A stretch of 64,000 nucleotides of DNA from Mnemiopsis leidyi (taxonomy: Eukaryota). A program made the translations under genes and the position numbers. The stretch is taken from contig CM108484.1 in the NCBI GenBank assembly GCA_048537945.1, positions 4,210,494-4,274,493 on the forward strand, in the 5' to 3' direction. This document shows, piece after piece, positions 3,101 through 48,902 of the stretch. The notes under the pieces are model-generated. The model had not been told where the DNA came from and did not search any database. It saw only the letters and a program-made list of their open reading frames with translations. Numbering within the stretch: position 1 is the first letter of the stretch; every line of letters starts with the position of its first letter.

Positions 3101-5669
3101 GGCGGGGCCACACCCGCAGTATTTCAGACGTGTCCATGTTATCAGTGGGTAATGTCCATCAGAGACAACTTTCAGACGATGCGGGGTATAAGACTCTGTC
3201 CAGACTGAAATCTCCCCGTTTCAAACGTAACAGTCTGATGGGCAAGACAGTGCAGGACAAGAGAGGAGTCTCCCGGAGTAACACAAACAGCTTCAAACGA
3301 GCCAAGTCCACCATGACTCCAAGTAGTTCCACCTACAGTGTACAGTCACTGGAACCAGAGGACGACCCAGGAGACTTCTACAACCGAGAGTTTGAGAACC
3401 CGAATCCGATGAAGTTCACCCTTACACCGGCGTGCGGGGAGGACCTTGACCCTGACGCAGAGTTGAAGGTCAAGATCTGGAGTTCGTACTCCTGTTCGCA
3501 TTGCCAGAGAATGATATACGACGAGCAGATTTTAGCGGGTTGGGGGCACGAGGAGAGTAATCTCTCGACTACCTGTCCGTACTGTGACATGAAATCTGTA
3601 GCTCAACTATCTATAGAGGTATGTTTTTTTAGTAACAAAATATTTGGCAAAGGTTGCCTTCCTCAACCTCATAATATCTCGAATTCTGGACTCTTGATAA
3701 AAAACTTTAGAATCTAGATCATCACGTGACATGGCTCTTCACCCCAGGTTACATACCGGTCAGTTAACAGTGAGTCAGAGCCAGTTACACCGAGAATGCA
3801 CCGTGAGAGCAGTATCAGTAAAACTCAACCTATAGACACGAACAATATACAGATATCACTGGAGGGAGAGGACGATACCATGGACTCTTACGAATCAGGT
3901 TAGTTGAGGAGAGTGAGGATGGTTTGGAGAGGAGTTTGAAAGGAGTTTGGAAAGGAGTTTGGAGAAGTTTTTGGAGAGGAGTTTGGAGAGGAGTTTGGAA
4001 AGGCATTTAGAGAGGAGTTTGGAGAGGAGTTTTGAAAGGAGTTGGGAGGGTCAAGAGAGGAGTTAAGTGATGTTGGAAGAGGAGGAGATGAGTTGAAGAA
4101 AGTCTTCTAAATTTCAAACTTTTGCAAGGAAGCTTATATCAAAAAAAGATTTATCGGCTGTTTTCAACCTCATCTGTAATTGTTCGCAATCCCGTGACCA
4201 ATGTCCAATACTAATCGAAGTCTAGAAAATGAACTCTCAGGGAACATCAACTTCGCAATGCCCGAGCCGATAAGGCGGGAAAGAAAAAGTCGGAGTGGCT
4301 CCGTCTTAGCCAGTATGAACCCCAGAACTATGAGTATGAAGAAGAAGAAGGAAGAAGACAACACTGTGGAGAGGATTGAAGTCCCTTATCTGTGTCCTAT
4401 TGTGCTCCGTAAAGAGGTAATAACTTCTGTTTTCGTTAGAATAAAATGATAAGAACTTTAAATTTGAGGATAAAAATAAATTTTGTAAATTGTGAATTCA
4501 CTATCTATAACTTTTAGATCTTATAAGCTGAGCTTATAAGGTCATTAATAGGCTTCTTACTTAAACTTGATTGGCTGTTCCAGGTTGAATGTGTCTGTGA
4601 GAGTGATGGTCCAGGTGAGATGGTGAAGGACGATCTGGCTACCTCCCACACCATCGTCTTCTGGAACATGGTCTGGTGGTTCTGCAGAGAAAACTTGTCT
4701 AGTAGTCTACCTCTGTACATTCCTCAAGCTTTCAGACATCTCCACCCCAAGGGACAGGTCGGCAGTTTATCATTTGCTTACAGTTTTGTTCTTGCATCAG
4801 TAAGTCTAGCCTGCCAGTAAATAGTTTGTTGCGATAAAATTTGAGATCACGTCAATTCCTGAATAGTGTACCAAAAACTAACGTCTACTTACCAAATACT
4901 TACGTCTACCTACCAAATACTTACATCTCCTTCCCAAATACCTATGCTACTTAACAAATACTTACATCTACTTACCAAATACTTACGTCCTACCACCATA
5001 TCAGTTGTGTCAGAGTGTAGAGCTGAGTACACAGTGGTGTAAAACTTCACATTCCCTCTACAACAACTTTGAGGAGCTGTCACATCACAAGGATCTGCCT
5101 CAATGTACACAGCTGTGGAGGGTGGTGGAGAACTTCATGCAGGACGATGTAAGTTAGTAATGTGTAACATGTTGTGACAGCCCCCTATCAAGTTGTGCTA
5201 TAACCCCTATACGTCCCTCTGAATCCCTTATATGTGTCTCTAAACCCCCAGTAGTGTCCCTGAACCCCCTCCCCGACACGTCCCACTAAACCCCTATACA
5301 CTTATACCACCCTCTACAACCCCCGTACGTCCCACTAAACCCCTTTACACTTATACCACCCTATAAAACCCCCATACGTCCAACTAAACCCCTATACACT
5401 TATACCACCCTCTACAACCCCCGTACGTCCCACTAAACCCCTATACGTCCCTCTTAACGCCCTTCTAACGACTAACCCCTTGCCCGATCTCACTAAAACC
5501 AACTCTTTACCAGTTACAAAGTGCAGTTAACCTCCTTGTGGTACACCGTACTGAGGCGCACATAAATCTGTACCGAGAGTTGGTCTATCTGGGGTGTAGG
5601 TACAAGAACAACTTCTCTAATCTCCAGTTTGACGAGGACTACACTTCTTGCCTCGCTAGGATACCTCAG
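127..5669 (+). CDS. DENN-domain protein gene (DENND4/CRAG-like), partial multi-exon gene; 5' end upstream of window
   Basis: Spliced exons with GT/AG boundaries and frame continuity. Approx exons: 127-249, 354-610, 825-1013, 1156-1349, 1485-1671, 1856-1995, 2264-2404, 2596-3618, 3748-3898, 4241-4416, 4584-4799(?), 5514-5669. Exon 354-610 encodes a DENN-core-like motif (LLYPFKWMSPYIPLLP ... PVPFIIG). Exon 825-1013 carries the VDLDHNTV motif. dDENN-like exons follow. The large exon has PPR-like helices, a Ser-rich low-complexity stretch and a C-x2-C...C-x2-C motif. Exon 4584-4799 and a possible small exon near 5095-5137 are uncertain (phase conflict). Confidence 0.55.
354..610 (+). CDS. DENN core exon
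   Basis: Acceptor cag at 351-353 and donor gtaaga at 611. Translation SGGTVKTLLECLEPNHLLQVFFQLLLEENVLFISSSSLNLTATAEAFCSLLYPFKWMSPYIPLLPRLIGEELFADFELDCPVPFIIG matches the DENN core consensus. Confidence 0.6.
2596..3618 (+). CDS. Large exon of DENN gene (PPR-like helices, Ser-rich region, Cys4 motif)
   Basis: Acceptor cccag|GTG at 2593-2595 and donor GAG|gtatgt at 3619. It is a 341-codon open frame inside ORF 2512..3717. Confidence 0.5.
3921..4075. repeat. Minisatellite (GGAGTTTGGAGAG)n, ~12 units, intronic in DENN gene
   Basis: Direct tandem repetition visible in sequence. Confidence 0.8.
4868..4995. repeat. ~21-bp tandem repeat (TACCAAATACTTACGTCTACT)n, ~5 units
   Basis: Visible tandem units. 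Confidence 0.7.
5205..5465. repeat. ~60-bp tandem repeat x4 (cccctatacacttataccaccctctacaacccccgtacgtcccactaaa)
   Basis: Four near-identical consecutive units. Confidence 0.75.
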
Positions 5670-6399
5670 GTATGTCTGGCATTTGTGTGGACATAGTATT
5701 CCGTAACTTTTCAGCTATTCTTCCCTTTCTGCTGATGCGGCGGTTATGGATAAGGCTTTTTGCTATTTTTGTTGGCTATTTATGTTCTGTACATTTTCGC
5801 TAAACTGATAAGGTATCTCGTTGTTCTGATGCACGTTTTTCTCTAAAAAGGTCGGACAACAAGTGCCTTTCGAATTGGAATTAACGGACAGACTGCACGG
5901 AAATAGTAGTCCGAGCGATGGAGAAAAAATCAAACGATTGGTAGTGTGCCTTTAATGTATTCCGCTGAGTGCCAAAATATTTCCAGTTTTTCGGAAACTT
6001 TTTGGTGCAGTTTTGGTCTTGTGTGATCTCATTTACAGTCTTGAATGTGCCTGTGTTACTCATTGTTAGTTCCTACAACTCCATATAGATAATGTAACTG
6101 TTCTTCATACATCACATAAAAAATATTGCATTTCTGAATTTTTCTTCGATAGATCATTGGACTGGCCTGTGACCTATGTAAATTGTATCAGGAAGTAAAA
6201 ATATCGCTTGCTTCGGATACTTATCTCCGTTTTATGCTACCGGAAACGGACCTCAGAATTTATATTGCATGTAATCAGCTACTAATTACTATCCTTTAGG
6301 AATTTAAGATGCTTTCATTCTCAACTTCGGTATGAAATAAAAACGTAATTTGATAGAAACTTAATTTCTGGGTTTGAAGTAAGTGCGCAGCATGAGTGA

Positions 6400-6600
6400 T
6401 CTCCACCCAAACCTCCTCCCCACACCCCCACCTCCCTCCCTAGCTCCTTCCTCCCTCCTTCTTCGTGAATGACGGAAAATTTACTCTATCTAATCTCCTT
6501 CTCCCTTCCCTTCTCTATTTCTCCCCCACCCATACCGGCCCCTCCCCACTCCTTGTGTATGACAGAAACTTCACTTCCTCCAATTTCAGATTTCTTCCTC
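6400..6600. repeat. CT/CCTCC-rich low-complexity tract
   Basis: Pyrimidine-rich simple sequence. Confidence 0.6.
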
Positions 6601-8190: not shown

Positions 8191-10089
8191 TTCGCTAATT
8201 GTCTGACTTTGTCCGACCCTCATTCGAAGCGGAAAATAAAATGACGGGAGTGGAGAGGGTGCGCGCTGCTGTACAATTCGCTAAAATAAGCTTTTCGCAG
8301 CCACCTCTGGTGGCGCGCAGGACGCGCGCGAAAGGGCTATGGTTAGAGCAAATTCTTTTTAAGCTGTTACATGTTATGTCAACCCAATTTGGCTTTGCAT
8401 GCTTACCCTAAATTTCAAAAGTTTTGTCATTTTGCCCCGTTATCCAAATTTTATAGCATCGCTCCCCCATTTTCGTCCACACTTGGCCTTTGTTACTTAA
8501 GTTCCTCAGTCCCTTTTTTTTATTGGAGGGGACCGTAGACAGAGGGTCATGCAACCCCTGGTTAATCCTTTCAGAGTTTAACGGGGTTTATTGTTGGCTA
8601 CATGAAACCGCGGTGCCAGATACAAGATAGAGTCTGACTTATTTTGGTGTACCTTAGAGTGACAGGATTATGTCAATCTGCTGGCCAATCTGCCGAGATT
8701 ACCCTGCTCCACATATGATTTAACATATCATTCTGATTGGACTTATCCAGGTTATGTTAATTTTTCTGCGGACACTGATGCTGCCTCAAGGACAGACATA
8801 AGCTGTAGCGAAACTGTAAATAAGTAAATAAATAAATAAATTGTAAATAATAAATAATAAAACAATAATTTTTAATAAAACAATAATTTTTATTTTCGAC
8901 AGCAATCAAAATATAAAATATATCAATTCAATAGCACAGCTACAGTCGTCTACGTCTGCTGTACACCCCAAATGCAGTGTAGCAGAAGACGCGCGCAGCA
9001 CGAAGTGTAGCATAATTACTTGCTTCGGGGCCGCACGCGCGCGCAGCAAGCCGCGGGAGAAACGCTGCCGCCATAGACGCCTGGTCTGACGTAGCAGAAT
9101 GCTTCACCGGCGTCTCGAACCGCACATGCATGCAACCTCCTAAATTCAGAAAAATCATATCTTCACAGATATTAAGAAATCTGGCACCACACACCAGTTG
9201 AGTAAAAGAAAGTTTTCGATAATGTCGTGCTGGTGCTAAACGTAATTTATATCTTGTTGGTTTGGTTTTAACTTTCATTCATAACACTGCAATCAAACAA
9301 ACTTATACTTGCCCATCAGGAAGCATTCCTGGAAGCAAGAGCAGCTGATGCAAGGTAACCACTCTCGCTTACAAGAATGTGCAAAAGATTCAGTATAGTA
9401 AGCATTATGCAATAAATTTACAAGAATCGGAGAGAACAGCACTGAGCTTAGTAATTGTACATCCAATGGACAAGAGTAAAATGGTAAGTGTTCCCGATGG
9501 GCAAGCACTTGCCCTGCTCTCAGCCCGCATAATTGCCGACTTGCAGGCAGTGCAAGATAACGAGGACTATGCTTGCCCCGTCCCCAATAACTGTGGCAGG
9601 ATATTATTTCTCCCCTGCGTCATACTATAACCATTTCAAACTGGACCAGTTTATTCAAAAGTTTGGCAAGTACTTTACTGAGGCTCGACGGATGCACAGA
9701 TCCACAAATACCGCGGCCCGACAATAAAGGAAAAGGCTGTCGAAGGATGAAAACATTGTTCATTTTCTCTCACCCTATACCCTTCTCCCCTGCACGGTGA
9801 GTTCCGGGGTACCGTGAACCCGTGCAAACCTCGAGCTGGTATTATAGATTATTAAGATACGCTTTGGAATTTAACACAGTGGGAAGGGGACGGTAGCATA
9901 CAATCAATGGGCATTTTCATGTTTAGTCTAATTTCGGCGTTTTAAAACTAAAAGTTTTTCAAAGATAACAATCTGAAGTCCACATGAAGAAAAGTTCCGA
10001 AGAATCACACCGACAAGAATCGTATGGTCAGAGGATGTACAACACTTACGTGACGTTAACTTTGGATTTCATAATTGGGGAACTGAAGA

Positions 10090-10730
10090 TCGGATTGAAT
10101 TCCCTTACTTAAGGGGGAATTGTAAAAATTTAGCTAGACCAACGGACTGTACAGTAACCTAAAGCACCCTAATGGGCATCAATTGCACCACTTATTTTTT
10201 GATTCTATGATGACGCATTTTTTAAAATCGCAAAAAGAAAATTTTTCCGAGAATTTGGAAATTTTTGGAAATTTACATTGCATAAATAAAACTCAGCCGT
10301 TTCTAATTGAATCATGCTGAAAATTTGCACGAATTTTATTTATACCTTTGTTGAGCAGCTGTAAAAATTTCACGAAAAACTAATAAAAGTTGACTCAATG
10401 GCACCTGTCCAAAGTTGCCAAGTCCCAAAAATTTCTTTTTTATGTTAACTAACTTTGAAAATTTGCACATGCTACTGTGAAATGTCAAGCACCTTGAAAC
10501 TTTGCACACAGGTAGAAGACAGCGATGGAAAAATTTTGATGCTATGAAAAGTCTGTTTCCAAGGAAAGGGGGAAGATTTATGGACACTTGAAATAAAAGT
10601 AGGAATTTATCTGCCAAATTTCAACTTGAAAACAAAAAATTGTTAGAGCCACCCTTGAGTTGTCTAAATGCCAGATATAAGGTCACTCTTTACAAACATA
10701 CTTTATCCGACCCGGGTGTATTGGTTTTGG
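10090..10730. repeat. Left arm of ~640-bp inverted repeat flanking the LINE
   Basis: Reverse complement of 15535-16170 at ~90% identity. Mirror ORFs 10336..10617(-) and 15649..15930(+) encode near-identical peptides. Confidence 0.85.
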
Positions 10731-10849
10731 GCTTAAAATATGATATCAGATACATTTTAACTCTACCATATTTTGTCACTCTTGGACAACTATTGTTCTC
10801 TAGCACATACATCTTTCATTTTAGACTATTTAAGACCTCGGCAAACATG

Positions 10850-10869
10850 ATTGATTGATTGATTGATTG
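10850..10869. repeat. (TTGA)n microsatellite, which is the 3' tail (TCAA)n of the minus-strand LINE
   Basis: ttgattgattgattgattg lies immediately 3' of the LINE ORF on its strand. Confidence 0.7.
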
Positions 10870-13800
10870 CCCTAACCGGGCTGGCATCTAAGGGCCATCA
10901 AATATAATATAAATAGAGATCATACTTAAATTTTATTACATGGTAAGAAAGAGAAAAAATTTAATAAATCATGTGCAATATGAAACTGTAAAAGTGAAAG
11001 TGAAAATGAAAATGAAAAATGTAAAACTAAACACGGTTGCTTGAATTCAGCACAAAGATATCACTGCAATGAATAATAAATAAAAACGGTAAAAAAGGGT
11101 TCCCAATTATGTAGCTAAATTAAATCAATTGACCGCTAATCGTCAAAATCAGGCTCCTTGTAATTAATGTGGTTCTCTCTATTTCTACTGGAGCATCTTA
11201 GACCTTTTATGTTCTGTAAAGCATTGTTGCCGGCTTCCCATGAGTCTAAACTGCCTGCACTTTGTGCACTCAGTAAGACATCTGTAGCATGTTTTTTAAA
11301 AATATTAATTGAATGATAGGAAGATGGCGGAATCGAGTCTAATTTGAAAACAGAATTAAGCAGTAGGGGTCCCTTGTAAAATAGGGAATTTCTATAGACG
11401 GTCGTTCCATACGTGTTCAACCAGGCACTATCTTTTTCATGATTCATGTCGGACGGCAGCGGAATGTTACGGGGAAAGAGTTCCGCTATAGAATCGGGCA
11501 GTAAGGATTTAAAATTGTACAACTTGAACATGAAGATTGCAGCATTTTTAGCAATCATATTGTGTATTGTGAGTAAACCGAGATTACAGTAAGCGGCCTT
11601 TGTACTAGATGGAACAGTCTTATCTTCAGGGTTGAAAAAGTATCTTACGTGTCCAGGCATGATAGCACGGATTCCATTCTTTTGTTTTGTGAACAGTGAA
11701 TCGATGTTCGATTTGGCAGAAAAACCCCAGACTAAACTGCAATAATTTATATGGCTCTGTACAAAACTGTTGAATATAAGCATTCTAGCTTTTAGTGGTA
11801 GTAAGTGTTTGATTCTAAACATTATTCCTGTGTAGCGGCTTATTTTAGCTCGAAGAGCTACAATATGAGCACTCCATGTCAAACCTTCATCAATGATTAC
11901 ACCTAGGAACTTGGCTTCGCTTACGTGTTTTATCGGTGAGCCTTTAATTGCGAGATTAATTTCCTTATTAACGTTTTTCTTGCTAAAAACCATATAATTA
12001 GTCTTTTTAAGATTCAATAGTAGGCCATTTGCGTTTACCCATGATAAAATTTGTGTTGCCAGGCCTTCGACCTTGCCTTTGATTTCACACATGTCATTAC
12101 CAGTCACTATAATATTTGCATCATCTGCGTAGAGTATGAATTTAGCTGCCTTATCTATGTTTGGTAGGTCGTTGGTGTATATAACGAATAGCAGAGGTCC
12201 CAAGATACTGCCTTGTGGTACCCCATAGCGTATTTCTGTTGCGTTGGAGTCAGTACCATTGACACTCACAAATTGACTACGTCTGCTGAGGTAGGATCTA
12301 AGCCAGTCGTGTGCTGGACCTCTTATACCGTAGTGATATAACTTTTCAAGTAATATAGTGTGTTCAACCAGGTCGAAAGCTTTGGAAAAATCTATCATCA
12401 AGAGCAAGGCTACTTGGTTTTTGCTAATGGTGTCAAGCAGTTTACTATTAGCTGCAAGCAGTGCGTGTTCACATGACCTACCCGCTCTGAAACCAAATTG
12501 GTTTTTGTATAAGGTGTCATTTTCTTCCATGAATTTTACTATTCTGCAGTGCATAACTTTTTCGTAAATTTTAGAGAATGACGACAGCAGTGAGATAGGT
12601 CTGTAACATGTGACGTCAGTTTTACTTCCGCCCTTATGTATTGGGACAACTCTGGCACATTTAAGCTTGCTAGGAAAAATTCCCTCAGCCAGAGATGCTG
12701 ATACAATGTTTGACAACGTAATATTAAATTTTTCACTGCAGTTTGAGGCAATCTTTATTGCACTCACTTTAGTGTCGAGGGTGCTCTTGTTTTTCAGTTT
12801 ACGAATAATGGTAGCAATTTCATCGGGCCCTGCAGGACTAAGGTATATCGTATTAGCGTTAGATCGATCCATGAAAGAACCGTAGTTGTTGGAGGCATCC
12901 CCCCTGATGCCAGACTTAAGGTTACTAGCTATGTTTGAGAAATACGAGTTAAACTGTTCTGCGATGCCTATATTATCAGTAACACTTTCGCCATTTTCCC
13001 CAACAACTTTTTTTATGTCCGATGTTTTCTTCCCTCTATTTAATAGCTCATTAATAAGTCCCCATTGCTTTTTGGAGTTGTCTTTATGCTCCTCAAAAAT
13101 TTTTGCATAGTATCTTCTTTTGGATAAATTTACATGTTTTTCTGTGAATTTTTTCATTTTATCATACTTAACTTTATTTGCTGTTGTGTTATGTTTTATG
13201 AAGTCATGATATAAAAGTTGTTTACGGTGAATTGCGTCTTCAAGCCAGGGAAGTATCCATGGTTTTGGTTGTGCTCTCTCATGTCTCCTTCGCGCAGAAT
13301 TATTTTTACTAGGATAAGCAGATTCATAGTGCTTAGTGTATATGTCACAAAATTTATCATATTTTTCCTCGGCATCTAGATTATCGCCCATTTCCCAGGT
13401 TTCACCTTGTATCAGATTTTTAAAGTTTTCGTCGTTGGCCGAATTAAATACCCTATAGTTGCATGTATTTGAGTCTGCCATTCGATTTGCCGGCCTAACT
13501 GTCCTATCAAAGTTCTTATTGAGTGAAATTATTACGTTTGTCCCTAGATGATCAGTAATGTCCAGCGTTATGACGTTAGAGCTAACAACACTATTAGTTG
13601 AGTTAATATATATGTGGTCAATAAGCGTTGCACTGTGGTCAGTAACACGTGTGGGTCGCGAGATCACTTGTAGAAATCCGTGGCTGGCTGTTATTTCAAC
13701 AAGTTCCTGTCCATGGGAGTCATGGTCGTACTTGATAAGGTCAATGTTGTGATCACCAGTTAATACTAAAAGTTTGTTTTTATGTCTATTAAGCTTTCTT

Positions 13801-15290
13801 AACGCCTGTAAGTAAGTCTCAAGAAAGGTATTGGGACTGCGAGACGGGGATCTGTACACGTTAGTTACTATTACAGTACGATTGGTTTTTTTGAAATTTT
13901 CTATTCTTACAAATTGAAATTCACCATCAACTGAACTATTTATGTCCAAAATTAGGGGATGGATGTCATCGTGTGAACAGACCCGTTCGTGAACATAGAT
14001 TACTAAACCACCACCTTTTCCTGAAGGTCTGGCGGGGTCCTGTACTATTGGGGAGTGAAATCCGTCTAAGAGGATATCATCTATTCCGTTTGGTAATTTA
14101 CTAATTACACAGTTTGTTTCGTTAAGACATATAACGTCGAATTTTTGATAATTTTCAATGTCATCCGAAATTGTTTTGAGGTTCGAAGCTATAGAGCGAA
14201 TGTTCAGCGAGAGAACACTTACTTCATCACCCTTTGATGCCTTAATTGAACTAAGGGTTTTATAGGTACAGTTGATGAGGTTCTGTGATGCACTAGACCA
14301 AACTTCATTTTCAGCAGCTATTGTGTCGCTGGTTCCTATATTATTCATGAGGTTGAGCGGATGATAGGGGTTGAAAAAGGTGCTTGTGTTTGTGGGAAGT
14401 GAGGTACCGAAAAGTTCGCCTGTGTTGCTACAACTGTAACCAGGGATTGTTTCTTGGCAACATTGTAAGCACCCTAGGGTTTCTCTACTGCATTTCGGGT
14501 GATTGGGATTTTTGCAAAGTTGACAGTACACTACTTTCGATCTGCTATATGCGTAACTATTACAGCTATGGCAGCGTAACTTAAACGGCTTAGTGCTGTT
14601 ACGTGGTGAGACGTTTAAGAGTTTATGGTTTGACGATGTCAGTGTCTCACATGCCTCTATAGGTAAGATATCTTTAATACAAGCTTTGCAGATCCAGTCA
14701 TACCCCGAGTCAAATGATATCGCTGATGCCTCTAAACGTGATATGCCGTGACACTTTTGGTGCTTGGTTTCTCCGCAAATCCAGCATTTCAGATTTTGCC
14801 TATTTCTGGGGATACGTGTGGTACAATACTCGCATTCATTAGTACTTTTCCGTTGTTGCATTTGATGTTGAGGTTTAAGAGTTTAAGTGTGGTGAGATGT
14901 GAGAATCTGACAATACTGTTACTGTACTGGGAGATATTAAAGAAATAGATGTAAGCGTAGATTTAAAAATAATCGTAACCTGACTGACACTTGGCTCGAG
15001 CACTGATTTCAGTACTGTGTGGTTTAGATGTCAGTCTATATATAATAACCTATACACCTGCTATCCTTCAGTACCTGTACCTAGCTCCTATTTTTGCTTA
15101 TTCAAATTGGATAATAGAAAATCTCTATAGCAGAGAAAGTTTGCAGTAAAAAGATCTGTTACTATGTAAAGGGGTTCGTCTGCCTGTGTGTCATGGAAAA
15201 GAGACATGTTTGGGGGAGGGGGAGGGGGTATTTTTTGGTCGAAATTAGCTAAAGAGGTCTCTTTCACAACAATACAAAGATAAAAATGTT
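10860..15290 (-). mobile_element. Full-length non-LTR retrotransposon (LINE; CR1/L2-like clade suggested by microsatellite 3' tail, clade unresolved)
   Basis: Single intact 1241-aa ORF with Cys-rich N-terminus, APE endonuclease and RT domains. There is a (TCAA)n 3' tail, a ~400-bp 3'UTR and a ~400-670-bp 5'UTR. Exact ends are not determinable without copies. Confidence 0.75.
11136..14861 (-). CDS. LINE ORF2-type polyprotein: N-terminal Cys-rich/PHD-like zinc fingers, APE-type endonuclease, reverse transcriptase
   Basis: 1241 aa without stops. Zinc-finger-like CWICGETKHQKCHG...CKAC. EEP endonuclease motifs (LSLNIRS, ICLNETN). RT motifs FSKAFD and YADD (ILYADDANI). The C-terminal domain is conserved with the fragments at 16430-17771. 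Confidence 0.9.
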   Translation of the reverse strand: MQQRKSTNECEYCTTRIPRNRQNLKCWICGETKHQKCHGISRLEASAISFDSGYDWICKACIKDILPIEACETLTSSNHKLLNVSPRNSTKPFKLRCHSCNSYAYSRSKVVYCQLCKNPNHPKCSRETLGCLQCCQETIPGYSCSNTGELFGTSLPTNTSTFFNPYHPLNLMNNIGTSDTIAAENEVWSSASQNLINCTYKTLSSIKASKGDEVSVLSLNIRSIASNLKTISDDIENYQKFDVICLNETNCVISKLPNGIDDILLDGFHSPIVQDPARPSGKGGGLVIYVHERVCSHDDIHPLILDINSSVDGEFQFVRIENFKKTNRTVIVTNVYRSPSRSPNTFLETYLQALRKLNRHKNKLLVLTGDHNIDLIKYDHDSHGQELVEITASHGFLQVISRPTRVTDHSATLIDHIYINSTNSVVSSNVITLDITDHLGTNVIISLNKNFDRTVRPANRMADSNTCNYRVFNSANDENFKNLIQGETWEMGDNLDAEEKYDKFCDIYTKHYESAYPSKNNSARRRHERAQPKPWILPWLEDAIHRKQLLYHDFIKHNTTANKVKYDKMKKFTEKHVNLSKRRYYAKIFEEHKDNSKKQWGLINELLNRGKKTSDIKKVVGENGESVTDNIGIAEQFNSYFSNIASNLKSGIRGDASNNYGSFMDRSNANTIYLSPAGPDEIATIIRKLKNKSTLDTKVSAIKIASNCSEKFNITLSNIVSASLAEGIFPSKLKCARVVPIHKGGSKTDVTCYRPISLLSSFSKIYEKVMHCRIVKFMEENDTLYKNQFGFRAGRSCEHALLAANSKLLDTISKNQVALLLMIDFSKAFDLVEHTILLEKLYHYGIRGPAHDWLRSYLSRRSQFVSVNGTDSNATEIRYGVPQGSILGPLLFVIYTNDLPNIDKAAKFILYADDANIIVTGNDMCEIKGKVEGLATQILSWVNANGLLLNLKKTNYMVFSKKNVNKEINLAIKGSPIKHVSEAKFLGVIIDEGLTWSAHIVALRAKISRYTGIMFRIKHLLPLKARMLIFNSFVQSHINYCSLVWGFSAKSNIDSLFTKQKNGIRAIMPGHVRYFFNPEDKTVPSSTKAAYCNLGLLTIHNMIAKNAAIFMFKLYNFKSLLPDSIAELFPRNIPLPSDMNHEKDSAWLNTYGTTVYRNSLFYKGPLLLNSVFKLDSIPPSSYHSINIFKKHATDVLLSAQSAGSLDSWEAGNNALQNIKGLRCSSRNRENHINYKEPDFDD

Positions 15291-15534
15291 CTTACTCGAA
15301 AGAAAAATCTTTTGCAAGGGTCCCCCCTTGTGTTCAAAATCGAGAATTTTTAAGAAAAACTCATTAGTCACAAAGATTGGTATGACACACTTTCTTAGAC
15401 TATTTTTAAGCATAGAATTAAAGTATGACCATGAAAATTGTTCAAAATTTTTAGAAAAGGCAAAACAAAGAAAAATATACATAAATCACACAAAGTGTTG
15501 TTATGGTAAACTTAAAAAAGTGTTCGATTTACAG

Positions 15535-16170
15535 CCCAAAACCAATACACCCGGTTCGGATAAAGTATGTTTGTAAAAAGTGACCTTATATCTGGCATTT
15601 AGACAACTCAAGGGTGGCTCTAACAATTTTTTGTCTTCAAGTTGAAATTTGGCAGAAAAATGGCTACTTTTATTTCAAGTGTCCATAAATCTTTCCCCTT
15701 TCCTTGGAAACAGACTTTTCATAGCATCAAAATTTTTCTATCGCTGTCTTCTACCTGTGTGCAAAGTTTCAAAGTGCTTGACACTTCACAGTAGCATGTG
15801 CAAATTTTCAAAGTTAGTTAACATAAAAAAGACATTTTTGGGACTTGGCAACTTTGGACGGGTGCCATTGAGTCAACTTTTATCAGTTTTTCGTGAAATT
15901 TTTACAGCTGTTTTACCAAGGTATGAATAAAATCCGTGCAAATTTTCAGCATGATTCAACAAGAAACGGCTGAGTTTTATTCATGCAATGTAATTTTCCA
16001 AAAATTTCCAAATTCTCGGAAAAATTTTCTTTTTGCGATTTTAAAAAATGCGTCATCTTAGAATCAAAAAATAAGTGGTGCAATTGGTGCCCGTTAGGGT
16101 GCTTTAGGTTCCTGTACAGTCAGTTTGTCTAGCTTCCACAAACCCCTGTTTGCTACAATTCCCCCTTAAA
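15535..16170. repeat. Right arm of inverted repeat flanking the LINE
   Basis: Reverse complement of 10090-10730. Confidence 0.85.
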
Positions 16171-16429
16171 GTCACTTAACACTGTCGTAGGAATGTCGGA
16201 ACCAGGAACACCCAGTTCGAAAGCAGAGAGCAAGCAACAGTGAACGATGCAAAAATTGAAGCCTTTGTAAATATAATACTATACGTTATGATCAAGTGTG
16301 CCAAGCTAGGTGTGCCACTTGCTCTATTACAGGGCGGATACAGGATAAAGCAACGCGCACAACAACGCGCAGCATTTAAACGATAAAAAGATGAACTTTA
16401 TTTACACCAATGTCGTATGGAGATTGCGC

Positions 16430-17008
16430 TCAGAACTGCTTGTTTTTGTCAAAGAATTCATTAAAATTCGATTCGCACCAATCGGGTCCATACATGCTTT
16501 GAGCCATCAGTAATGAGAATTTGAGTACACCTTTCATTGCACTGTAGGAGGAACTGAAATCTAATTGCCCAACCTTACGAAATTCATTCCACAGCCTAGA
16601 CGATTTGTACAGAAACTGATTAGATGGGGAAGGTGTAATAAGCAAGTTGTCCTTCCTGTTTGAAACATTAAATAAATAATACAAAGAGACTGGTTTCCGT
16701 GACTTGATAATTTTGAACAATTCCATTAAACAACGGTACCTATATAGATTTTCAACAGCTAGGATATCGTGCTTGGCGAATAGAGGTTTGGTAGATTCTT
16801 GTGTATAAAATTCAGTACCTAAACGTTGAGACTTAATTGGTCTCGCTCTAGCACATGTTCTGTACTTGTCAGTGAAGCTTTCACAGTCGCCAAAGAGGAT
16901 TCTTACACATTTTTTCTGAGTGATAAAGAGTGATTTAAGCTGGTTGCTAGAGATTCCGCCCCAAACAGATATAGAAAAACCTAAGTGAGATTCAAAAAGG
17001 GACGACAA
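16430..17008 (-). mobile_element. 5'-truncated LINE fragment (RT C-terminal domain only)
   Basis: The 192-aa ORF aligns to the C-terminal region of the 1241-aa LINE ORF (LFESHLGFSISVWGG... vs LIFNSFVQSHINYCSLVWGF...). Confidence 0.6.
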
Positions 17009-17435
17009 GAGTTGCTCAAGAGTTGCTCAAGAGTTGCTCAATTCAAGGATTCTATATATAAATATGAATAAAACATCTAAGTAACAGATAGTTGATTAAA
17101 AACATCTCTGTCCACTAATTTTTCTCAAAACAAAATTCGCAGAATTAGCAAACTTCTCCGATGAGCTCTATCCTAAGCAATTAAGTTGAATATTTAAATC
17201 ATTCAAATCATCCAACGAAAATTTTCGAACACTGAGGTTTTTGCAATATCAGTGAGTAAAGGTTTGACGCAGGTTTGACCGCGGTCGTCAACGTCGCCTT
17301 TGCAACTGCAAGGTATTGATAACTAAGATAAGCGACGAATAGGCTGGACCATCTGTAGGCCCACGCAGTACATGACCTAGCATTCTTCACCGACTATGAG
17401 CCACTCGCACTGACAATGGCTCCACATTTCAGCGT

Positions 17436-17771
17436 TTACACAAGTTTTTGTTGGAAATGTGGTGACTGGTGGGGATACTTGTAATTCAACATTGATCGTA
17501 GATATCGTCTATGATCAATGTCCAGCTTTTCCAACACTGGAGCAGCCCAGCAACTAGAATTGTACATTAGGACAGAAACTACCAGAGCATCATACAACAG
17601 TAGCCGCTTGTTCAGAGGGATGCTATGATTCCAAGCTTCCTTGTACTTGTTTAACGCAGCATATCCCAGACTGATCCTTCTAGAGATGTCCTTCATACTA
17701 CAAAGCATGGAGCCAAGCGTAATACTCTTTCTCCAAAGCTCGTTACCTGCAATCGGTTCTAATCTTTCCAT
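17436..17771 (-). mobile_element. Second truncated LINE RT-C-terminal fragment (different copy or family)
   Basis: KRLLLYDALVVSVLMYNSSCWAAP parallels the same ORF2 region as the fragment above. Confidence 0.5.
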
Positions 17772-18757
17772 TTGTATTGGATTTTCGAAGAATCCTTATT
17801 GTTTTGGCTGTACAGATGAAGGTCTCAATAGGCGAGAAGAGGAGAGTGTGTGAACTGGAAGTGAGATAAACCCTTTCTTAGCTTTTTATTACTGCAATGT
17901 TTGGTGCCATATATTTAAATCAGTCGCAAAACACAAACTTGCCTCCGGCCAGAAAAGATACGTAGTGTCCAGATTCCTTGTAATTTCAAGTTGAAAATTT
18001 TCATTTTTTGGCTATAGGTGTGATGGTTTTTCGGATTTGAAACCATCAAATTAGGATTCCTTGTCAAATTTTACATCAAAATACTGGTCTTACTTTTTTC
18101 CTTGCTCCAAGTTGAAAATTTACATGTTGGGGCCTTATAAGGAGTCACTTAAGGGGTCATGTGATCATTTTTAGGATTCGAAACTATCAAATTCGGGTTC
18201 CTCATAAAATGTTACGTCAATATATGGGGGGTCGGGTTGGGACTTGGGTCAGGTCATACTCCACATTTCATGTTGTCATACTAGGGAAAAAATCGATTGA
18301 GAATAGTCTCAAGGTTCTAGAATTTTGGGTTAAGTGTCTTTTCCGGGGTGGTTGCCACCACCCTAATTACTCATCAGTGCAATCCTAAAAGTTACAAGAA
18401 TAAGTTGCATAGCCTCCAACGGGAAATATGTTTGATGCCCTATCTGTGATATGTTTTGTCACACCTAGAGTAGTTAAGTTTATCACAGCAAATATGATTG
18501 TAAAATGAATATGAATGCATTGAATTATTTTTGAACACGGGAAGATACTTAATGAGAGGGGTCTTTTTTACATAATTTTGTTCAGTTTAGATTTTAATGA
18601 TATTGATACGGTGATATACTTTTTCTACTGAGTCTGGGGCATTTTAGCATAATTGGTTACTGTATGATATGATTTGATTGAAATTGTTTATTGAGTTGAA
18701 TTGGTTTTGATATGATTATCAATATTCTATAAATTTGGCTATAGTGGGTGCCCCATC

Positions 18758-18952: not shown

Positions 18953-21831
18953 ATGGCTGCAGTATTAGATGACAACATTTTTGAAAACATTTTCTCAGAA
19001 GCTAAGAAATGTGAAGAGGATGGATATCTAGAGGAAGCACTATCATTGTATAAGAATGCTCACCAGCTTCATCAATCTGACAGTTCTAAATTTGCTATTG
19101 ACCGACTCACTGATTTGTTAAATTCTAAATTGGTCAATAGTTTCCATGATAATTTGAATCTCCAAGCTTCTCCTCATTTCCAATCGACTCCCTACAACAC
19201 CCAAGGAGATAACTTAGCCATGAATGGACCATCAACTTACAATATGTCCACTACAACTCCATTAAAATCGGCCTTAGATCACATCAAAAGCCTTGATATA
19301 AGTGCCATTAATCAGTCCAGTAACATGACTATAGCAGTGCAGGAGGGTGAGAAATCATTTGATGCTGGAAAGTACAACAAGCTTATTGTTGAGGCTCGGT
19401 CTCTTTATAAAAGTGGAAATGAACTTCAAAAGGCTTTAGAAAAATATGAAGAGGCGTATTCCTTGCATGAAGATGCAAAATTGCTAAAAAGGATTGTTAA
19501 AATTCAGCAGGAACTCAAATTAAAGCAGGTTGAAACATATGTAGACACAAATGCCCTTAAAAACAAATCTGATAAAGAAGATCAGATTGATCAGTATAAC
19601 AACTTTGTCATTAATGCCAAAGCTTGTATGGAATCAGGAAGCCCAGATGAAGCCCTTCAGCTTTATCAAGAAGCCTACAAAATTGATCCATCTGAAAGAC
19701 TTAAAAAGAAAATCGACAAGTTACTCGAAACATTAGCCCAGTCAGCAGGGGATGAAAGTATAGATGTTGAACATTACAACAAACTAATCATGGATGCAAA
19801 AGTGAAGCTTAAGGAAGAGGACTACCAAGGAGCATTATTGTTGTATGAGAATGCTCATGAGTTAAATCCGAATGAGAAGTTGCAAAAGAGAATTGATAAG
19901 ATTAAGGACTTCATTGAAAATGATGTTGAGGATGATAATGAAGAAAATCAGGATGAACAAACAACTCCAACGAATAATCTTAGTCCTTCTAATGACAAAA
20001 ATTGGAACAAATCCATGATGCAATCAGAAGTTGATGAACAGTGTAAAGGCCTCATTGAGGATGCTAAAAGATGGGAGAAAACTAATAAGATAAGTGAAGC
20101 ACTTGATGCTTATAGAGAAGCCCAGAGTTTAAAACCCTGTCCTTACTTTGTTCAGAAGATTACTGATCTTGAAAAAAAACTTGACATTAATGAAAATGAT
20201 GGTGATGATGGTGAATCTGAATTAAATGTTGAGCATTATAATCAGCTTATTATCAAGGGAAGAGAGCATCTTAATGATGATAATATGGATAAAGCTCTAA
20301 AACTGTATGAAGAAGCCTATGAGATCAATCCTTCAGAAAAGCTTTCCAAAAGAATATCTAAAATAAAGAACAAGTTGTCTGAACTTAATAATGGTGAAGA
20401 AGCTGGTGTGGATGAGGAAGTTAAAGAATTTTATGACGCTACCATTGCCGATGCCAAGATAAAAGAAGACAAGCTTTTGTATGACGAGGCAATTGCATTG
20501 TATGAAGAAGCAAATGAGCTCATTCCCAGCGATAGCTTGTCTAGAAAAATTGCTAATCTTGAATTCAAAAGGGACTCTGACAAAGACGCTGAATCTCAGA
20601 AACCTAGTTCAGTGCAAAGTCTCGATGATCTGTCTGCATTTGAGAAAGCAAAGTACAACGAATTAATTGTCAAGGGGAAATATGCGCAGAAAGAATCTAA
20701 GATCGAAAAAGCATTGGGTTATTATAAAAAAGCTGCTCAGATTTACAAAAATGAAAAGCTTGGTACTCGAATTCAAAAGTTGGAAAAGTTTCTTGAGGAG
20801 GAAGCAGAGAATGAAAATCTTTACACAGATATTGGTGATGGCCTCTTTCTAACTAACGATGTCCATGACAAATTGTATCAGTATCAAAGAGAGGGTGTGA
20901 AGTGGATGTGGGAGCTGTATCGAGCTGAACATGGAGGAATTCTTGGAGATGATATGGGCCTGGGCAAAACGATCCAAACAATTGTTTACTTGCAAGCTTT
21001 ATTCCTCATGGAAGAGATATCTACAGCAATGCTGTGCATGCCACTCTCACTTATCAACAACTGGCAAGAGGAATTCAAGAAATGGGCTCCTGAAATTAGA
21101 GTGGAACTTTTCCATGGATCCAAGGCTGAGCGGGAAAGGAATGTTAAGAAGGTTATTAAGCGAGGAGGTGTCATACTGACAACATATGGGATTATCGAGA
21201 AAAATGTTGAGTTCCTGGTGAATACTTCATTTAAGTGGGATTATCTCGTATTGGATGAGGGACACAAAATCAAAAATCCAACAAAGACCAGTAAAGCTAT
21301 GAGGAATGTCCCCTGTAATCATCGTCTTCTTATTTCTGGAACTCCTATCCAGAATAACCTAAAAGAACTTTGGGCATTATTTGATTTTGTCTCGCGAGGT
21401 AAGCTATTGGGAACCATGACAACCTTCAAGATGAATTACATAACACCCATCGAAAGAGGTCGTGAAAAAGATGCTTCAAAGGCAGAGGCTAAGCTTGGTG
21501 CAAAACTTGCAGAGAATCTCAGAAAATTGATAGATCCCTTCTTTTTGCGTCGAACAAAAGCAGAAATCAAGTCCAAAAACACTGACAGTGCTTCTGCTTT
21601 TAGCAAACTAGGGAAGAAGAATGAGCTGTGTGTATGGCTACAGCTTTCTGATGTACAACTCAACCTGTACAAAGCTTTTCTTACCCTTGACTCTGTCCGC
21701 GATGCCATGAATTCTTCAAAATCTCCTCTCGCTGCCCTAACTGTTCTCAAGAAAATTTGTGATCATCCACGCCTGGCTATCAAGTTTGAAGCTCTAAGAG
21801 AAGTCATGGATGCCGACAATATGAGCATGAA
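18953..21831 (+). CDS. ERCC6L: PICH exon 1: 8 tandem TPR-like repeats plus SNF2 N-terminal ATPase lobe
   Basis: ATG at 18953 and donor AA|gtgagt at 21832. About 640 aa of ~45-aa repeats (YN.LI..A......Y..AL.LYEEA.EL.P.EKL.KRI.KI), then [16 protein letters not shown]... Confidence 0.85.
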
Positions 21832-24800
21832 GTGAGTTGTTTCCCTATTTGTCTAATTTGAGTTTCAGAATAATTACATATTAGGGAAAGGGTAGTTTGG
21901 TTAATGTGTTTTGCCCATTGCGCTATAATTTATGCCATAAATCTAAACGGTGCTCCTATTTGTATTTCCATTGTTCTTTGTTTATTCATCACCACATCTC
22001 CCTAAAAACTTTCTTTAACACTTGTCATGCTTTCAGACCTGACGATCACCAAAAACTACTGTCAACAGTGGAGCTCCCTAAAGATCCAGCAGATGAAATT
22101 TTGTTGAGGGAAAGTTGCAAATTGAAGTTTGCCCTAGAGCTGTTGGATCATCTCCATGCTGATGGTCATAGAACACTTTTATTCTCAACCTCCCTTAAGA
22201 TTCTCAATTACATCCAATCAATGATAGCTGACAAGGTATGTCAAAAATTGAGCCTTAGTACGTTAAATTTTGACATTATAATGAAATGTCCAATGATTCT
22301 GAACAGCCGTTTTTGAATGGCCTTCTAAATTTAGTTAACCAAGCGGCACAGTACGTGCAGTATTTATTTAACAGTTTAAGGGCTTTTGACTCGCTTTTGA
22401 GCGATCATTATCTCAAAATATTCGTTGATTATACCCAACCCCCCCCCTTCCCCCTCTTTGGGCATCTTCCTCCACCCCAGCTGCCTATCTATATTTTGCA
22501 CCTAAACTGGCATAACCTTACGGCTTACATAGATCTAATAACAGGGGTTGAAATGTTTGAGGATAGACGGTTCTATAAACAGGCCAGGAGAAAGACAGGA
22601 GATTATTGATAAGTTTAACACTGACATGAGGTACAGTGTACTACTTCTTACCACGCAAGTTGGTGGTGTCGGGCTAAATCTTACATCTGCAAACAGAGTC
22701 ATCATCTGTAAGTTTTCAATACTGTAAGATATAGATACTGTTTTTACATATGATACCAACTCTCGGTTGTCATTGTGTTTGAGCAAATTAAAAGGAGGAC
22801 CAGCTATGAAATTATTTTTAAAATTTCAGATGATCCGAACTGGAACCCAGCAACAGATGCTCAAGCAGTGGACAGATCCTACAGGATAGGACAAACAAAG
22901 CCCGTAATTGTATATCGGTTGTTAACTAGTGGGACTATAGAGGAGAAGATATACAGGAAGCAGGTGTTCAAAGATAGCATCACCAGACAGGCTACTGGAG
23001 AGTCGTTCGATCCTATCAGGTGTGGAAATAATTACTTGTCTTTGTGATAGAGGAAGTACTCAATAAGGTTTCTCACTTTACCATGATCATCTTATTAACT
23101 CTACAAATGACAAGCCACAGTGTTGGCTGAGTAACTGATATATCTCACCCTTCTTCAAATATGTACAAGTACAGAAATACAAATACACTAATACAACTAC
23201 ACAAATACACTTTCTGTTCAGGTACTTCACAAACCAGGAGATATCCCAACTGTTCGAGTTAGGAAGTACTTCTACCAGTGAAACATGCGATCAGCTAGAA
23301 CAACTGCACGGTGCAGACAGAAACCATTCAGAGCAAGTACGGACCGACTTGGCTGCAATCTCTGGAATGGGTTAGTTTATTTCAATTCGGATATCAGATA
23401 TTTGATTATTTGGGTGTGCTTTTTTTCTCGGTGCCATATTGGTACAACATTTTTGAATTAAAATGTGCACCACATTGGTTGTCTTATTGTTTTACCTATA
23501 ACCTACTGTTACAGGCGCTATTGGATGTAGCGATCACGATCTTCTGTTTTCTCATGAAGAGGTTGTGGATAACACCCCTGAAGAGCGCCAGTTTGTTGAA
23601 GAAAGGGTAAGTTTTCTGCAAATCATTACTGGGAACGTACCTGTTGCATGTTATGCCAGACCTTTTTCGTTACACTGTAGAAAATAAACCAAATTTTCAC
23701 TGCCAAGCTATACCAGTGTGTAAACGCAGGTCCTTTCTTTACATGCTTAGATGTTTTATGTAACGCGCGAACGCCAAACAAAAAACCCATGAACGTGCCT
23801 TCGCACGCGCGAAATTTAAAATTGATATATTGATTGAGGCGCGCCCGGCATAATATATTGCAATGCAGCACATGACATGACATGTGATCAAAATTAAATT
23901 CGATCATAGGATCTAAGCCAAAATGTGATTTAAATCAAAATGTTGATATAAATATATAATCTAGTCTATCAATTTCATGTTTCTATCAGTTTATTTATTT
24001 GACATGATTCTTCTAATTCTGTCCAATATTATAAATTTGTGAACATTTTCAGGTCCAACAAGCTAAGAGAAACCTAGCTGCGGAAACAGCTGCAGGTCCA
24101 TCCCCCTTCCCTAATTACACAGTGCCGCCCCGCAATAACCCTGCTGCTACTGCAGTACCACTCAGTGGGGGCATGAGAGCGCCTTGGGAACCAACCAGGG
24201 GACACAGTCTGTGGAACAACAAGGAAAATGAGGTTGAAACTGTCCGCAAAGATGTAGAGAGGGTTGAGATAAGAGAGTCTCCTTACTTTCAATCTCCAAT
24301 GAAGGGCAAGTTAACTGAGGTTATTACAATAGAGGACGACATGGACGAGGAAAAAGAGGAAGAAGCAGAACAAAGAAAGAAGTTGTCGTTGTCAGACTAC
24401 AAGAAGAGACAGATGAAGATATTCGACTATGTGGACAGTCCAACTCGACAGCCTAGAGAGACTACTTCATCCAGCCCCGTCTTCGTCAGCCCTGTTCGAC
24501 CTAGGAACGTTGTTAAGAAAAACGTTGTCACACCCAGGAAATCACTCAGTAACCCAGTCGGACAAATAATAGCTAATCACATCCTTAACACTCCCAAGAA
24601 GAACGACCCTGACAGCGATGACGAGGTTCAGGACGATCTAGAAAGTTCTAGATACGACAATCTGAACAAACCGCCCTGTCTGGACGAGTCTGAGGACGAG
24701 GAGGATTACTATGAGGCGCGGGAAGAATCTGAAGAGACGGGAGAGAGATCAGCTGAAGAGGATGCGGACAATGGGGACCAAAGTGAGGAAGAGGAGGATG

Positions 24801-37887: not shown

Positions 37888-37981
37888 ATGAAGGGTGATA
37901 AGGGCATTGTGATATCGGGCCTTTCCGGCCGATTTCCAAACTCCAACAATGTGGATCAGTTCTGGGATAATTTGGTGGCAG
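37888..37981 (+). CDS. FASN: FAS exon 1 (start codon; KS N-terminus)
   Basis: [32 protein letters not shown] compares with human [29 protein letters not shown]. Donor G|gtacgt. Confidence 0.85.
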
Positions 37982-46900: not shown

Positions 46901-48902
46901 AGCGGAGGGACGTGGTTATAGTTGGAGCACGGAGGGGGGAGGGACGTGGTAATAGTTGGAAGATAGATGGAGGAAGGAGGTGGTAATAGTTGGAGGATAG
47001 AGGGGGAAGGACGTGGTAATAGTTGGAGGATGGAGGGGGAAGGACGTGGTCATAGTTGGAGGATGGAGGGGGAGGGACGTGGTAATAGTTGGAGGATAGA
47101 GGGGGTGGGAGGTGGTAATAGTTGGACGATAGAGGGGGTGGGAGGTGGTAATAGTTGAAAGACGGAGGGAGGAGGAACGTGGTAATAGTTGCAGGATGGA
47201 GGGTGGAAGGAGGTGGTTATAGTTGAAGGATGGAGGGGGCGTGGTAATAGTTGCAGGATGGAGGGGGACGGACGTGGTAATAGTTGGACGATGGAGGGAG
47301 GAAGGTGGTGTTATAGTTGGCGGATGGAGGGGGAAGGACGTGGTAATAGTTGGTGGATGGAGGGGGAAGGACGTGGTAATAGTTGGAGGATGGAGGGGGA
47401 AAGACGTGGTCATAGTTGGAGGATGGAGGGGGAGGGACGTGGTAATAGTTGGAGTATAGAGAGGGAGGGACGTGGTTATAGTTGGAGGATGGAGGGGGAG
47501 GGACGTGGTAATGGTTGGAGGATTGCGGGGAGGGAGGTGGTAATAGTTGGAAGATGGAAGCGGAGGGACGTGGTAATAGTTGGATGATGGATGGAGGAAG
47601 GAGGTGGTAATAGTTGGAGGATAGAGGGGGTGGGAGGTGGTAATAGTTGGAGCATGGAGGGGGAGGGACGTGGTACTAATAGTTGGAGGATAGATGGAGG
47701 AAGGAGGTGGTAATAGTTAGAGGATGGAAGGGGAAGGAAATGGTAATAGTTGGAGGATGGAGGAGGGGAGAGGTGGTTATAGTTGGAGGATGGAGGAGGA
47801 AGGAGGTGGTAATAGTTGGAGGATTGAGGGGAGGGACATGGTAATAGTTTGAGGATGGAAGGGCAGGGAAGTGGTAATAGTTGGAGCATGGAGGGAGGAA
47901 TGAGGTGGTAATAGTTGGAGCATGGAGGGAGGAATGAGGTGGTAATATTTGGAGGATGGAAGGTGAGGGACGTGGTAATAGCTGGAGGATGGAGGAGGAA
48001 GGAGGGGGTTATAGTTGGAGCATAGGGGAGGGAAGGAGGTGGTAATAATTTGAGGACTGAGGGGGTGGGAGGTGGTAATAGTTGGAGGATAGAGGATTAG
48101 AGGAGGTGGGAGGCGGTAATAGCTGGAGGATGGAGAGGGAAGAAGGTGATAATGGTTGGTGGATGGAGGGAGGAAGGAGGTGGTTATATTTAGAGGATGG
48201 AGGAGGAACTGAAGAAGGGAGCATGGAGTATGTGTGGAGGGAGTGTGATTAACCGGCTGGAGGTCAGGGCCCATGCTACCTAGCTAGATATCATGGATAT
48301 AAGGGATTAAGGGATGCTCATTTACAATACAACCTTTTCGCTTCGTCAAATTCGCTGGGTTGGCATAGATTTTCGTTTTTTTGTCTTGATTTGGGAGTTT
48401 TTGTTTTGTTTTTTGTGCTATTGTGTCTAGGAAGAAGTTGATACGAGACTCCTAAAAAGTTTTAAAGAACGGATAAACAAAAAAAATCGCGACACCAAAA
48501 TTGTTGGTTTGGTATTGGTTTACTGGTAAACGACCCCCATGAGTTTTTGCTACTCTTCAATAAAATTCTATTTTGTACCTTAATTTGACGGATAGGGTAA
48601 ACTGTCGGTAGTGTGAGTAGCCACCAAGCAGTTGATCCTGTCGTTTTTGTATGGGTAAAATCCACTTCTCCATTTATATCTCTGAGACAATTGGATGCTT
48701 TACTTTCAGCCGATTTAAACTCAACAGACCGATTTTGCTAAAGGCATTGATGAAGGTTAACGATTAGCGATTGAAATTAATTGCCATAGCAGTTAGAAAT
48801 GTTCGCTTTTTATTTGACCGGCTCACAGATTTACCTATGCTATATAAAAAATACAAATCGTAATGAAGTCAAAATTATCTTTCATACTATTATTATTAAC
48901 CT

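Follow-up and report, generated by a model that had tools for sequence, protein, structure and literature searches.

A 64,000-nucleotide (nt) stretch of DNA from the ctenophore Mnemiopsis leidyi (contig CM108484.1 of assembly GCA_048537945.1, forward-strand positions 4,210,494 to 4,274,493), referred to here in its full length as the window, holds a long interspersed nuclear element (LINE) between two arms of about 640 bp that are reverse complements of each other. How do the arms and the LINE belong together? A preliminary description of the locus, made from the sequence alone, offered two answers: either a palindrome or foldback-like element was there first and the LINE had landed in its loop, or a host locus had been duplicated around it. 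It added that the first idea would fall if the arms turned out to be the untranslated regions (UTRs) of the LINE itself. We find two successive and unrelated transpositions, of a DNA transposon that targets TTAA and then of the LINE into its loop, and we put the probability of this reading at about 0.9. The overall structure is an ordinary nested insertion, and its two transposons are unannotated but of known kinds.

Boundaries and order of the two insertions

The inverted repeat (IR) reported earlier is upheld, with 93% complementarity between 10113-10739 and 15527-16165. Its ungapped core (10132-10739 and 15527-16134) covers 608 nt at 95% complementarity, and with a single 12-nt indel included it spans 10109-10739 and 15527-16169, at 93%. 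The arm pair is the only IR of at least 60 nt in the window and is far beyond chance. Self-BLAST of 10000-16300 and tblastn with 120 LINE homologues found no further copies of the arms or of the LINE in the 64 kb. Both arms hold the same open reading frame (ORF) of 93 amino acids (aa), at 10336-10617 on the minus strand and at 15649-15930 on the plus strand. Metagenome gene callers have annotated this ORF as a protein (cluster P0121-P0124), yet almost certainly it is transposon sequence that does not code for protein. When used as a query in a protein index it led to one cluster, encoded on seven contigs. Spurious proteins in large catalogues can hence serve as handles for retrieving non-coding repeats.

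The related sequences compared with the window are contigs L001-L009 and L130-L132, of which L003-L009, the seven retrieved with the arm ORF, are short metagenome contigs from several samples. All seven carry arm sequence and none carries the LINE. In each, the base equivalent to window position 10846 abuts directly on the equivalent of 15228, which gives the exact empty site of the LINE, in which ...ggcaaac is followed at once by gtatttttt.... Three LINE copies from elsewhere (L001, L130, and L131) in turn align to the window solely over 10843/10859-15232, at 99.2 to 99.4% identity, and contain no arm sequence. The arm-loop-arm unit therefore exists without the LINE and the LINE exists without the arms, as the first of the two earlier proposals had it, and the arms are not UTRs of the LINE.

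Without the LINE, the unit measures about 1.67 kb (627 + 107 + 299 + 639 nt), has a loop of 406 nt, and contains no ORF of meaningful length. It begins after a TTAA at 10109-10112, which lies directly outside GGGGGAATTGTA, as it does at five independent termini in other copies. The left arm (10113-10739, plus strand, 627 nt) starts with 5'-GGGGGAATTGTAAAAATTTAGCTAGACC and shares 98.1 to 98.4% identity with its counterparts in L003, L005, and L009. The left part of the loop, 107 nt at 10740-10846, and its right part, 299 nt at 15228-15526, both plus strand, are continuous with each other in L003-L009. The right arm (15527-16165, minus strand, 639 nt) has the outer end 5'-GGGGGAATTGTAGCAAACAGGGGTTTGTGGAAGCTAGAC, read on the minus strand, with 12 extra nt relative to the left end; the right arm of L004 matches it at 96.4% identity, and the second TTAA follows at 16166-16169. 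In each of the seven termini that were inspected (two from the window, one each from L003, L004, and L005, and two from L009), TTAA stands immediately next to GGGGGAATTGTA, while the flanks are unrelated. The left-type end (...GTAAAAATTTAGCTAGACC) and the right-type end with its 12 extra nt both recur in other copies, the latter in L004 and L009. At 1185-1257 of L009, only 65 bp separate a left-type terminus from a right-type terminus that faces it; both have a TTAA of their own, and the arrangement may represent two adjacent insertions or one rearranged copy. We conclude that the arms are the terminal inverted repeats (TIRs) of a non-autonomous, non-coding DNA transposon of about 1.67 kb that duplicates TTAA upon insertion. 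This long-TIR, TTAA-targeting element was previously unannotated, and its limits are now defined to the base.

The two arms of the window differ from each other at 48 positions. At 40 of these, the three other left arms share the state of the window's left arm, and at 29 the right arm of L004 shares that of the right arm. Since the left- and right-specific states recur in other copies, most of the 7% divergence between the arms is a trait of the family rather than the product of local decay. Each arm also contains three direct copies of the motif TGAAAAYTTGCAC; the motif occurs seven times in the window, compared with an expected 0.8, and six of the seven occurrences are inside the arms. We regard these three motifs per arm as candidate transposase-binding sites.

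The empty-site contigs prove the nesting, and from it follows the order of events. The divergence values agree with this order, the LINE being 0.6 to 0.8% and the host arms about 2 to 4% away from their respective relatives. In a first step, the non-autonomous transposon landed at a TTAA, which it duplicated. As the element has no coding capacity, its transposase must come in trans. In a second step, the LINE entered the loop, probably by target-primed reverse transcription. According to the standard mechanism, from which the cleavage position of the endonuclease is deduced, the plus strand would be nicked at 5'-GGCAAAC^GTATTT-3', and from the 3'-OH at 10846 the RNA would be copied into cDNA, starting at its (CAAT)n-CAT end. 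Either the copying or the joining would then have halted some 2.4 kb before the 5' end, with the cDNA end being joined at 15227/15228. The LINE insertion was accompanied by neither a target duplication nor a deletion.

The truncated LINE and the ORF1 of its relatives

The LINE insert occupies 10847-15227 on the minus strand (4381 nt) and is absent from all seven empty-site contigs. In the order of the plus strand, it consists of a tail, (CAAT)5CAT, at 10847-10869, a 3' UTR at 10870-11135, an uninterrupted ORF2 of 1241 aa at 11136-14861, and 366 nt at 14862-15227 that remain of the spacer between ORF1 and ORF2. The preliminary description was correct in reporting a 1241-aa ORF free of stops and frameshifts, and the (TCAA)n tail it noticed is the (CAAT)5CAT repeat, the sense strand ending in ...GGG(CAAT)5CAT. 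It had also proposed that other copies be used to locate the LINE termini. In the window, L130, and L131, three to five CAAT units are followed by CAT, so that the element ends 3' in short tandem units and not in poly(A). Past this shared end, the 3' flanks of the three copies are all unlike, from which it follows that they are independent insertions and that CAT is the last LINE-derived sequence.

Pfam recognizes a reverse transcriptase (RT) domain in ORF2 (RVT_1, E 1.2e-34, aa 747-990), preceded by an APE endonuclease domain (Exo_endo_phos, E 1.5e-8, aa 217-438), the order found in APE-type elements without long terminal repeats (non-LTR elements). Within the N-terminal 130 residues, two Cys4-His-Cys3 patterns can be discerned by eye, and Pfam gives a weak C1_1 match there (E 0.0035). 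Judged by architecture and tail, the LINE would belong to the CR1/L2 group. It resembles zebrafish ZfL2-1 (PMC3905857) and L2 subgroup 5 (PMC4120745) in its ORF2 with APE and RT domains, in its microsatellite-like 3' tail, and in the combination of 5' truncation with little or no target duplication. The PHD finger at the start of ORF2 in L2 subgroup 5 (PMC4120745) may find a counterpart in the PHD-like fingers seen here, and the esterase ORF1 of ZfL2-1 (PMC3905857) in the SGNH-esterase module of ORF1 in full-length relatives.

A protein search with ORF2 retrieved a 99%-identical cluster. The M. leidyi protein KAL5262947.1 is identical at 671 of 673 residues and the full-length ORF2 P0130, of equal length (1241 aa), at 1232 of 1241. 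The exact 1241-aa sequence has no entry in the contig index, nor has the M. leidyi protein P0125. Transposon proteins of M. leidyi are 96 to 99% identical, and it is from these, not from a host gene, that the sequence comparison points to this species as the probable source. An uninterrupted ORF2 with 99% identity to relatives demonstrates recent activity of the family, which does not imply autonomy of the copy in the window. Together, the window and the empty-site contigs supply an exact pair of filled and empty sites for such a CR1/L2-like LINE, with blunt integration, no target duplication, and 5' truncation.

The copy had been described as apparently intact, and this view cannot be maintained. 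While its ORF2 is complete, the copies in L001, L130, and L131 run on in the upstream direction past the equivalent of window 15227-15232 with a common sequence, which leads into the rest of the spacer and, in L001 and L130, into ORF1. Upstream of this point, L001 and L130 are 99.5% identical as far as L130 reaches, to L001 position 1456. Merged, they encode a 602-aa ORF1 (L001 225-2121, with an N gap inside, plus L130 3-578) that ends about 750 nt upstream of ORF2. The same layout is found in L132, a 6954-nt contig with a 46 to 49% identical relative (ORF1 at 198-2123 and ORF2 at 2844-6527). At the junction itself, the other copies read ...ctattctt AATTC followed by CCCCTCCCCC, whereas in the window the target sequence ...AATAC leads into CCCCTCCCCC. 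The microhomology amounts to 1 nt, or to 4 of 5 when a mismatch is counted (AAT.C). Relatives run about 2.4 kb further in the 5' direction, and tblastn with ORF1 detected no remnant of it in the window. With its first base 366 nt upstream of the ORF2 start codon, the copy makes up about 63% of the full length; of the three parts of an intact copy (5' UTR, ORF1, and ORF2), it lacks the first two. The element in L002, a 440-kb contig from a related genome with an 82%-identical ORF2, also lacks ORF1, its DNA being truncated at the 5' side as well, and was of no help in defining the 5' end. The window copy presumably has no promoter, and we infer that it was dead on arrival despite its complete ORF2. 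For annotation, this is a caution against equating an uninterrupted ORF2 with an intact LINE copy.

The nesting as such is textbook and offers little biological surprise. A by-product of the comparison with real potential is the ORF1 of the full-length relatives, which lies outside the window. These proteins of 602 to 641 aa combine an ALKBH3-like 2-oxoglutarate (2OG)-Fe(II) dioxygenase with a subsequent SGNH esterase. The first domain matches Pfam 2OG-FeII_Oxy_2 (AlkB) with an E value of 2.9e-17, above the Pfam cut-off, and comes closest to human ALKBH3 (E 4.6e-14). The second is an SGNH/GDSL esterase module. All 65 homologous ORF1 clusters contain the AlkB domain, and two of them are M. leidyi proteins. 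In an alignment of 54 homologues (31 to 100% identity), there is little or no variation at the residues that bind the metal and 2OG (H-x-D, H, R, and R), the D-S and G-x-N-D motifs of the esterase are kept in at least 51, and the block V His is present in 46. The ORF1-ORF2 layout is conserved in at least two divergent lineages.

A survey of ORF1 types in CR1, L2, and Jockey elements does not list a dioxygenase and reports esterase ORF1s in vertebrate subgroups only (PMC4120745). Compared with CR1/L2 LINEs that have an esterase ORF1, the dioxygenase N-terminal to the esterase is an additional feature of the family considered here. In the literature searched, we found no description of a LINE ORF1 of the dioxygenase-esterase type. 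An AlkB domain has been reported in an orchid Ty3/Gypsy lineage (PMC9289625), and the same literature yielded no other retrotransposon with such a domain, non-LTR elements included. We tentatively suggest that the family has an ORF1 type outside the published classification, a proposal that we rate at somewhat less than even odds. Should it be correct, a whole clade of LINEs from ctenophores and marine invertebrates would carry its own nucleic-acid demethylase. Plausibly, the predicted enzyme would remove marks of the 1-meA/3-meC type or the m6A type from LINE RNA or cDNA, comparable to the role that has been proposed for the AlkB domains which plant RNA viruses and the orchid Ty3/Gypsy lineage (PMC9289625) carry. 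This would be a new module among LINE ORF1 proteins and would tie retrotransposons to nucleic-acid demethylation in an early-branching animal.

Superfamily of the host element and competing explanations

The ends of the host element, 5'-GGGGGAATTGTA ... TACAATTCCCCC-3', have the form GGGGG...CCCCC. Kolobok elements are characterized by TTAA duplications and 5'-RR..YY-3' termini, and it is the termini that set them apart from piggyBac (PMC9587614). The TTAA duplication is common to the two superfamilies, and the ends seen here agree with the RR..YY pattern and not with the 5'-CC(C)...(G)GG-3' of piggyBac. Target duplication and terminal dinucleotides taken together suggest that the host element probably belongs to Kolobok. 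The nesting could be just as we describe it with a host element that was mobilized by a piggyBac transposase and merely has atypical termini. This variant draws on the TTAA duplication at seven of seven termini and on TTAA being the classic piggyBac target (PMC7351741). Yet the GGGGG...CCCCC ends differ from 5'-CC...GG-3' in exactly the feature by which PMC9587614 separates Kolobok from piggyBac, and we hold the variant to be unlikely.

Other lengths of the target duplication can be rejected. With a TA duplication, as for Tc1/mariner, one and the same additional T would have to flank the element at all seven termini, and for a TWA duplication, as for Harbinger, TTA and TAA are not direct repeats.

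From non-autonomous Kolobok elements, the host element differs by its very long TIRs (627 and 639 nt, about 75% of the element) and its foldback-like shape. [quoted passage not shown] In piggyBac the conserved ends are CC..GG, in contrast to GG..CC here, and the TIRs of the host element are far longer, the usual piggyBac TIR having 13 to 19 nt. Drosophila Foldback (FB) elements have long inverted arms as well and a loop that is open to inserted sequence. Their arms are made of tandem subrepeats and they duplicate 9 bp of target, whereas the arms described here hold only three dispersed 13-nt motifs each, contain no tandem arrays, and are flanked by a 4-bp TTAA. Ctenophores are absent from the Kolobok hosts listed in PMC9587614, and we found no mention of Kolobok in Mnemiopsis in the literature searched.

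Two further explanations were considered. If IR, LINE, and IR formed a functional composite, either the transposon would carry the LINE ORF2 as cargo or the arms would be structured UTRs of the LINE. The LINE does lie wholly inside the TTAA-bounded unit, and a transposase could in principle mobilize the whole 6.05 kb. A second composite copy was not seen, though, among other LINE copies that lack arms and seven further arm contigs that lack the LINE, and the LINE junction resembles that of an ordinary truncated target-primed insertion. A composite is accordingly very improbable. The remaining idea, an inverted duplication of a host locus around the LINE or an artefact of assembly, has nothing but the structural symmetry to commend it. 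It is contradicted by the defined termini with TTAA duplications at other, unrelated loci, which also disposes of the duplicated locus considered in the preliminary description, and by the continuity of the loop in the empty copies. As regards an artefact, the left- and right-specific differences recur across independent assemblies, and the different flanks of L003-L009 argue against all of them being mis-assemblies of one locus. We give this idea almost no credence.

Some points do weigh against two successive transpositions as we have reconstructed them. The comparison copies are short metagenome contigs and palindromic repeats can be mis-assembled, for which the divergent partial left arm of L004 may serve as an example. 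A transposase-encoding partner was not found, and what connects the host element with Kolobok is only the target duplication and the terminal dinucleotides. The short ORFs at the arm tips had been left uncalled by the gene callers in L003-L009 and hence offered no route to such a partner through the protein index. Scanning the JGI metagenomes with the terminal 16-mer TTAAGGGGGAATTGTA produced 120 loci, all of them chance occurrences (BLAST of 9800-16500 against these gave no match), and hence no autonomous partner, nor has a Kolobok DDD/E transposase with its C/DxxH signature been linked to the element. Finally, read-through transcription could still allow a copy to be expressed that is 5'-truncated but intact in its ORF2.

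Neighboring fragments, genes, and arrays

Beyond the right arm, the preliminary description placed two further 5'-truncated copies of the RT C-terminal region and, with them, a local insertion hotspot. Both pieces are indeed truncated LINE 3' ends, but they represent two other families. The piece at 16430-17014 (minus strand) is a 3' fragment of a divergent CR1-like LINE comprising the C-terminal part of ORF2 (tblastn with P0112, aa 951-1053, 32% identity, E 1.4e-8) and is 25% identical to the main LINE. The one at 17174-17771 (minus strand), with a frameshift near 17465, derives from an RTE-like LINE and covers the region after the RT. It has 587 phmmer matches, of which the long ones, of about 900 to 1040 aa, contain RVT_1 and, in three of five cases, APE, the match being located just after RVT_1; by tblastn it extends over aa 701-890 of the 907-aa P0138. 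Similarity between this piece and the main LINE was undetectable, and the two small fragment ORFs contain no Pfam domains. At the junction of the fragments, 17009-17041 (minus strand), the sequence itself displays a short tandem repeat, (TTGAGCAACTC)3, possibly representing the RTE-like fragment's 3' tail.

Another repeat family, at 18025-18369, is 72 to 83% identical to L002 21886-22648 and includes a unit duplicated internally; this family probably represents one more small mobile element. It lies just upstream of a 960-aa, intron-free ORF (18953-21835, plus strand) that encodes TPR repeats and, after them, the N-terminal domain of an SNF2-family helicase, in a layout that we take to resemble PICH/ERCC6L; about 1.2 kb separate this ORF from the LINE fragment closest to it. 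From 10.1 to 17.8 kb, and with this repeat included, the intergenic DNA upstream of the SNF2/TPR gene is thus largely derived from transposons.

Does this region attract insertions? Four transposon pieces are found within 7.7 kb, the three LINE pieces are all on the minus strand, and the repeat at 18025-18369 adds to the density. On the other hand, the pieces belong to four families with differing integration chemistries and share no target motif, and three elements will share an orientation by chance in about 1 in 4 cases. Insertions are also expected to be tolerated in intergenic DNA that is poor in genes, as it is here upstream of the SNF2-family gene. A hotspot in the sense of a preferred target between 10 and 18 kb is therefore improbable and was not demonstrated; four transposon pieces in 8 kb of intergenic DNA fit simple accumulation.

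Elsewhere, the window contains a ketoacyl-synthase fragment at 37888-38478 and a gene for a rhodopsin-type G protein-coupled receptor at 58614-59681 (minus strand), and a tRNA scan was negative. A tandem array at 39643-41912, with 84 copies of a 27-bp unit at 94% match, lies inside a 771-aa minus-strand ORF (39575-41890) and may encode a 9-residue peptide repeat. A second, very G-rich array at 45461-48207 is built from 82 copies of a 33-bp unit with a higher-order period of 267 bp. It causes the extreme GC skew at 44-48 kb, which reaches 0.89 at 46-48 kb, and is crossed by minus-strand ORFs of 165 to 324 aa.

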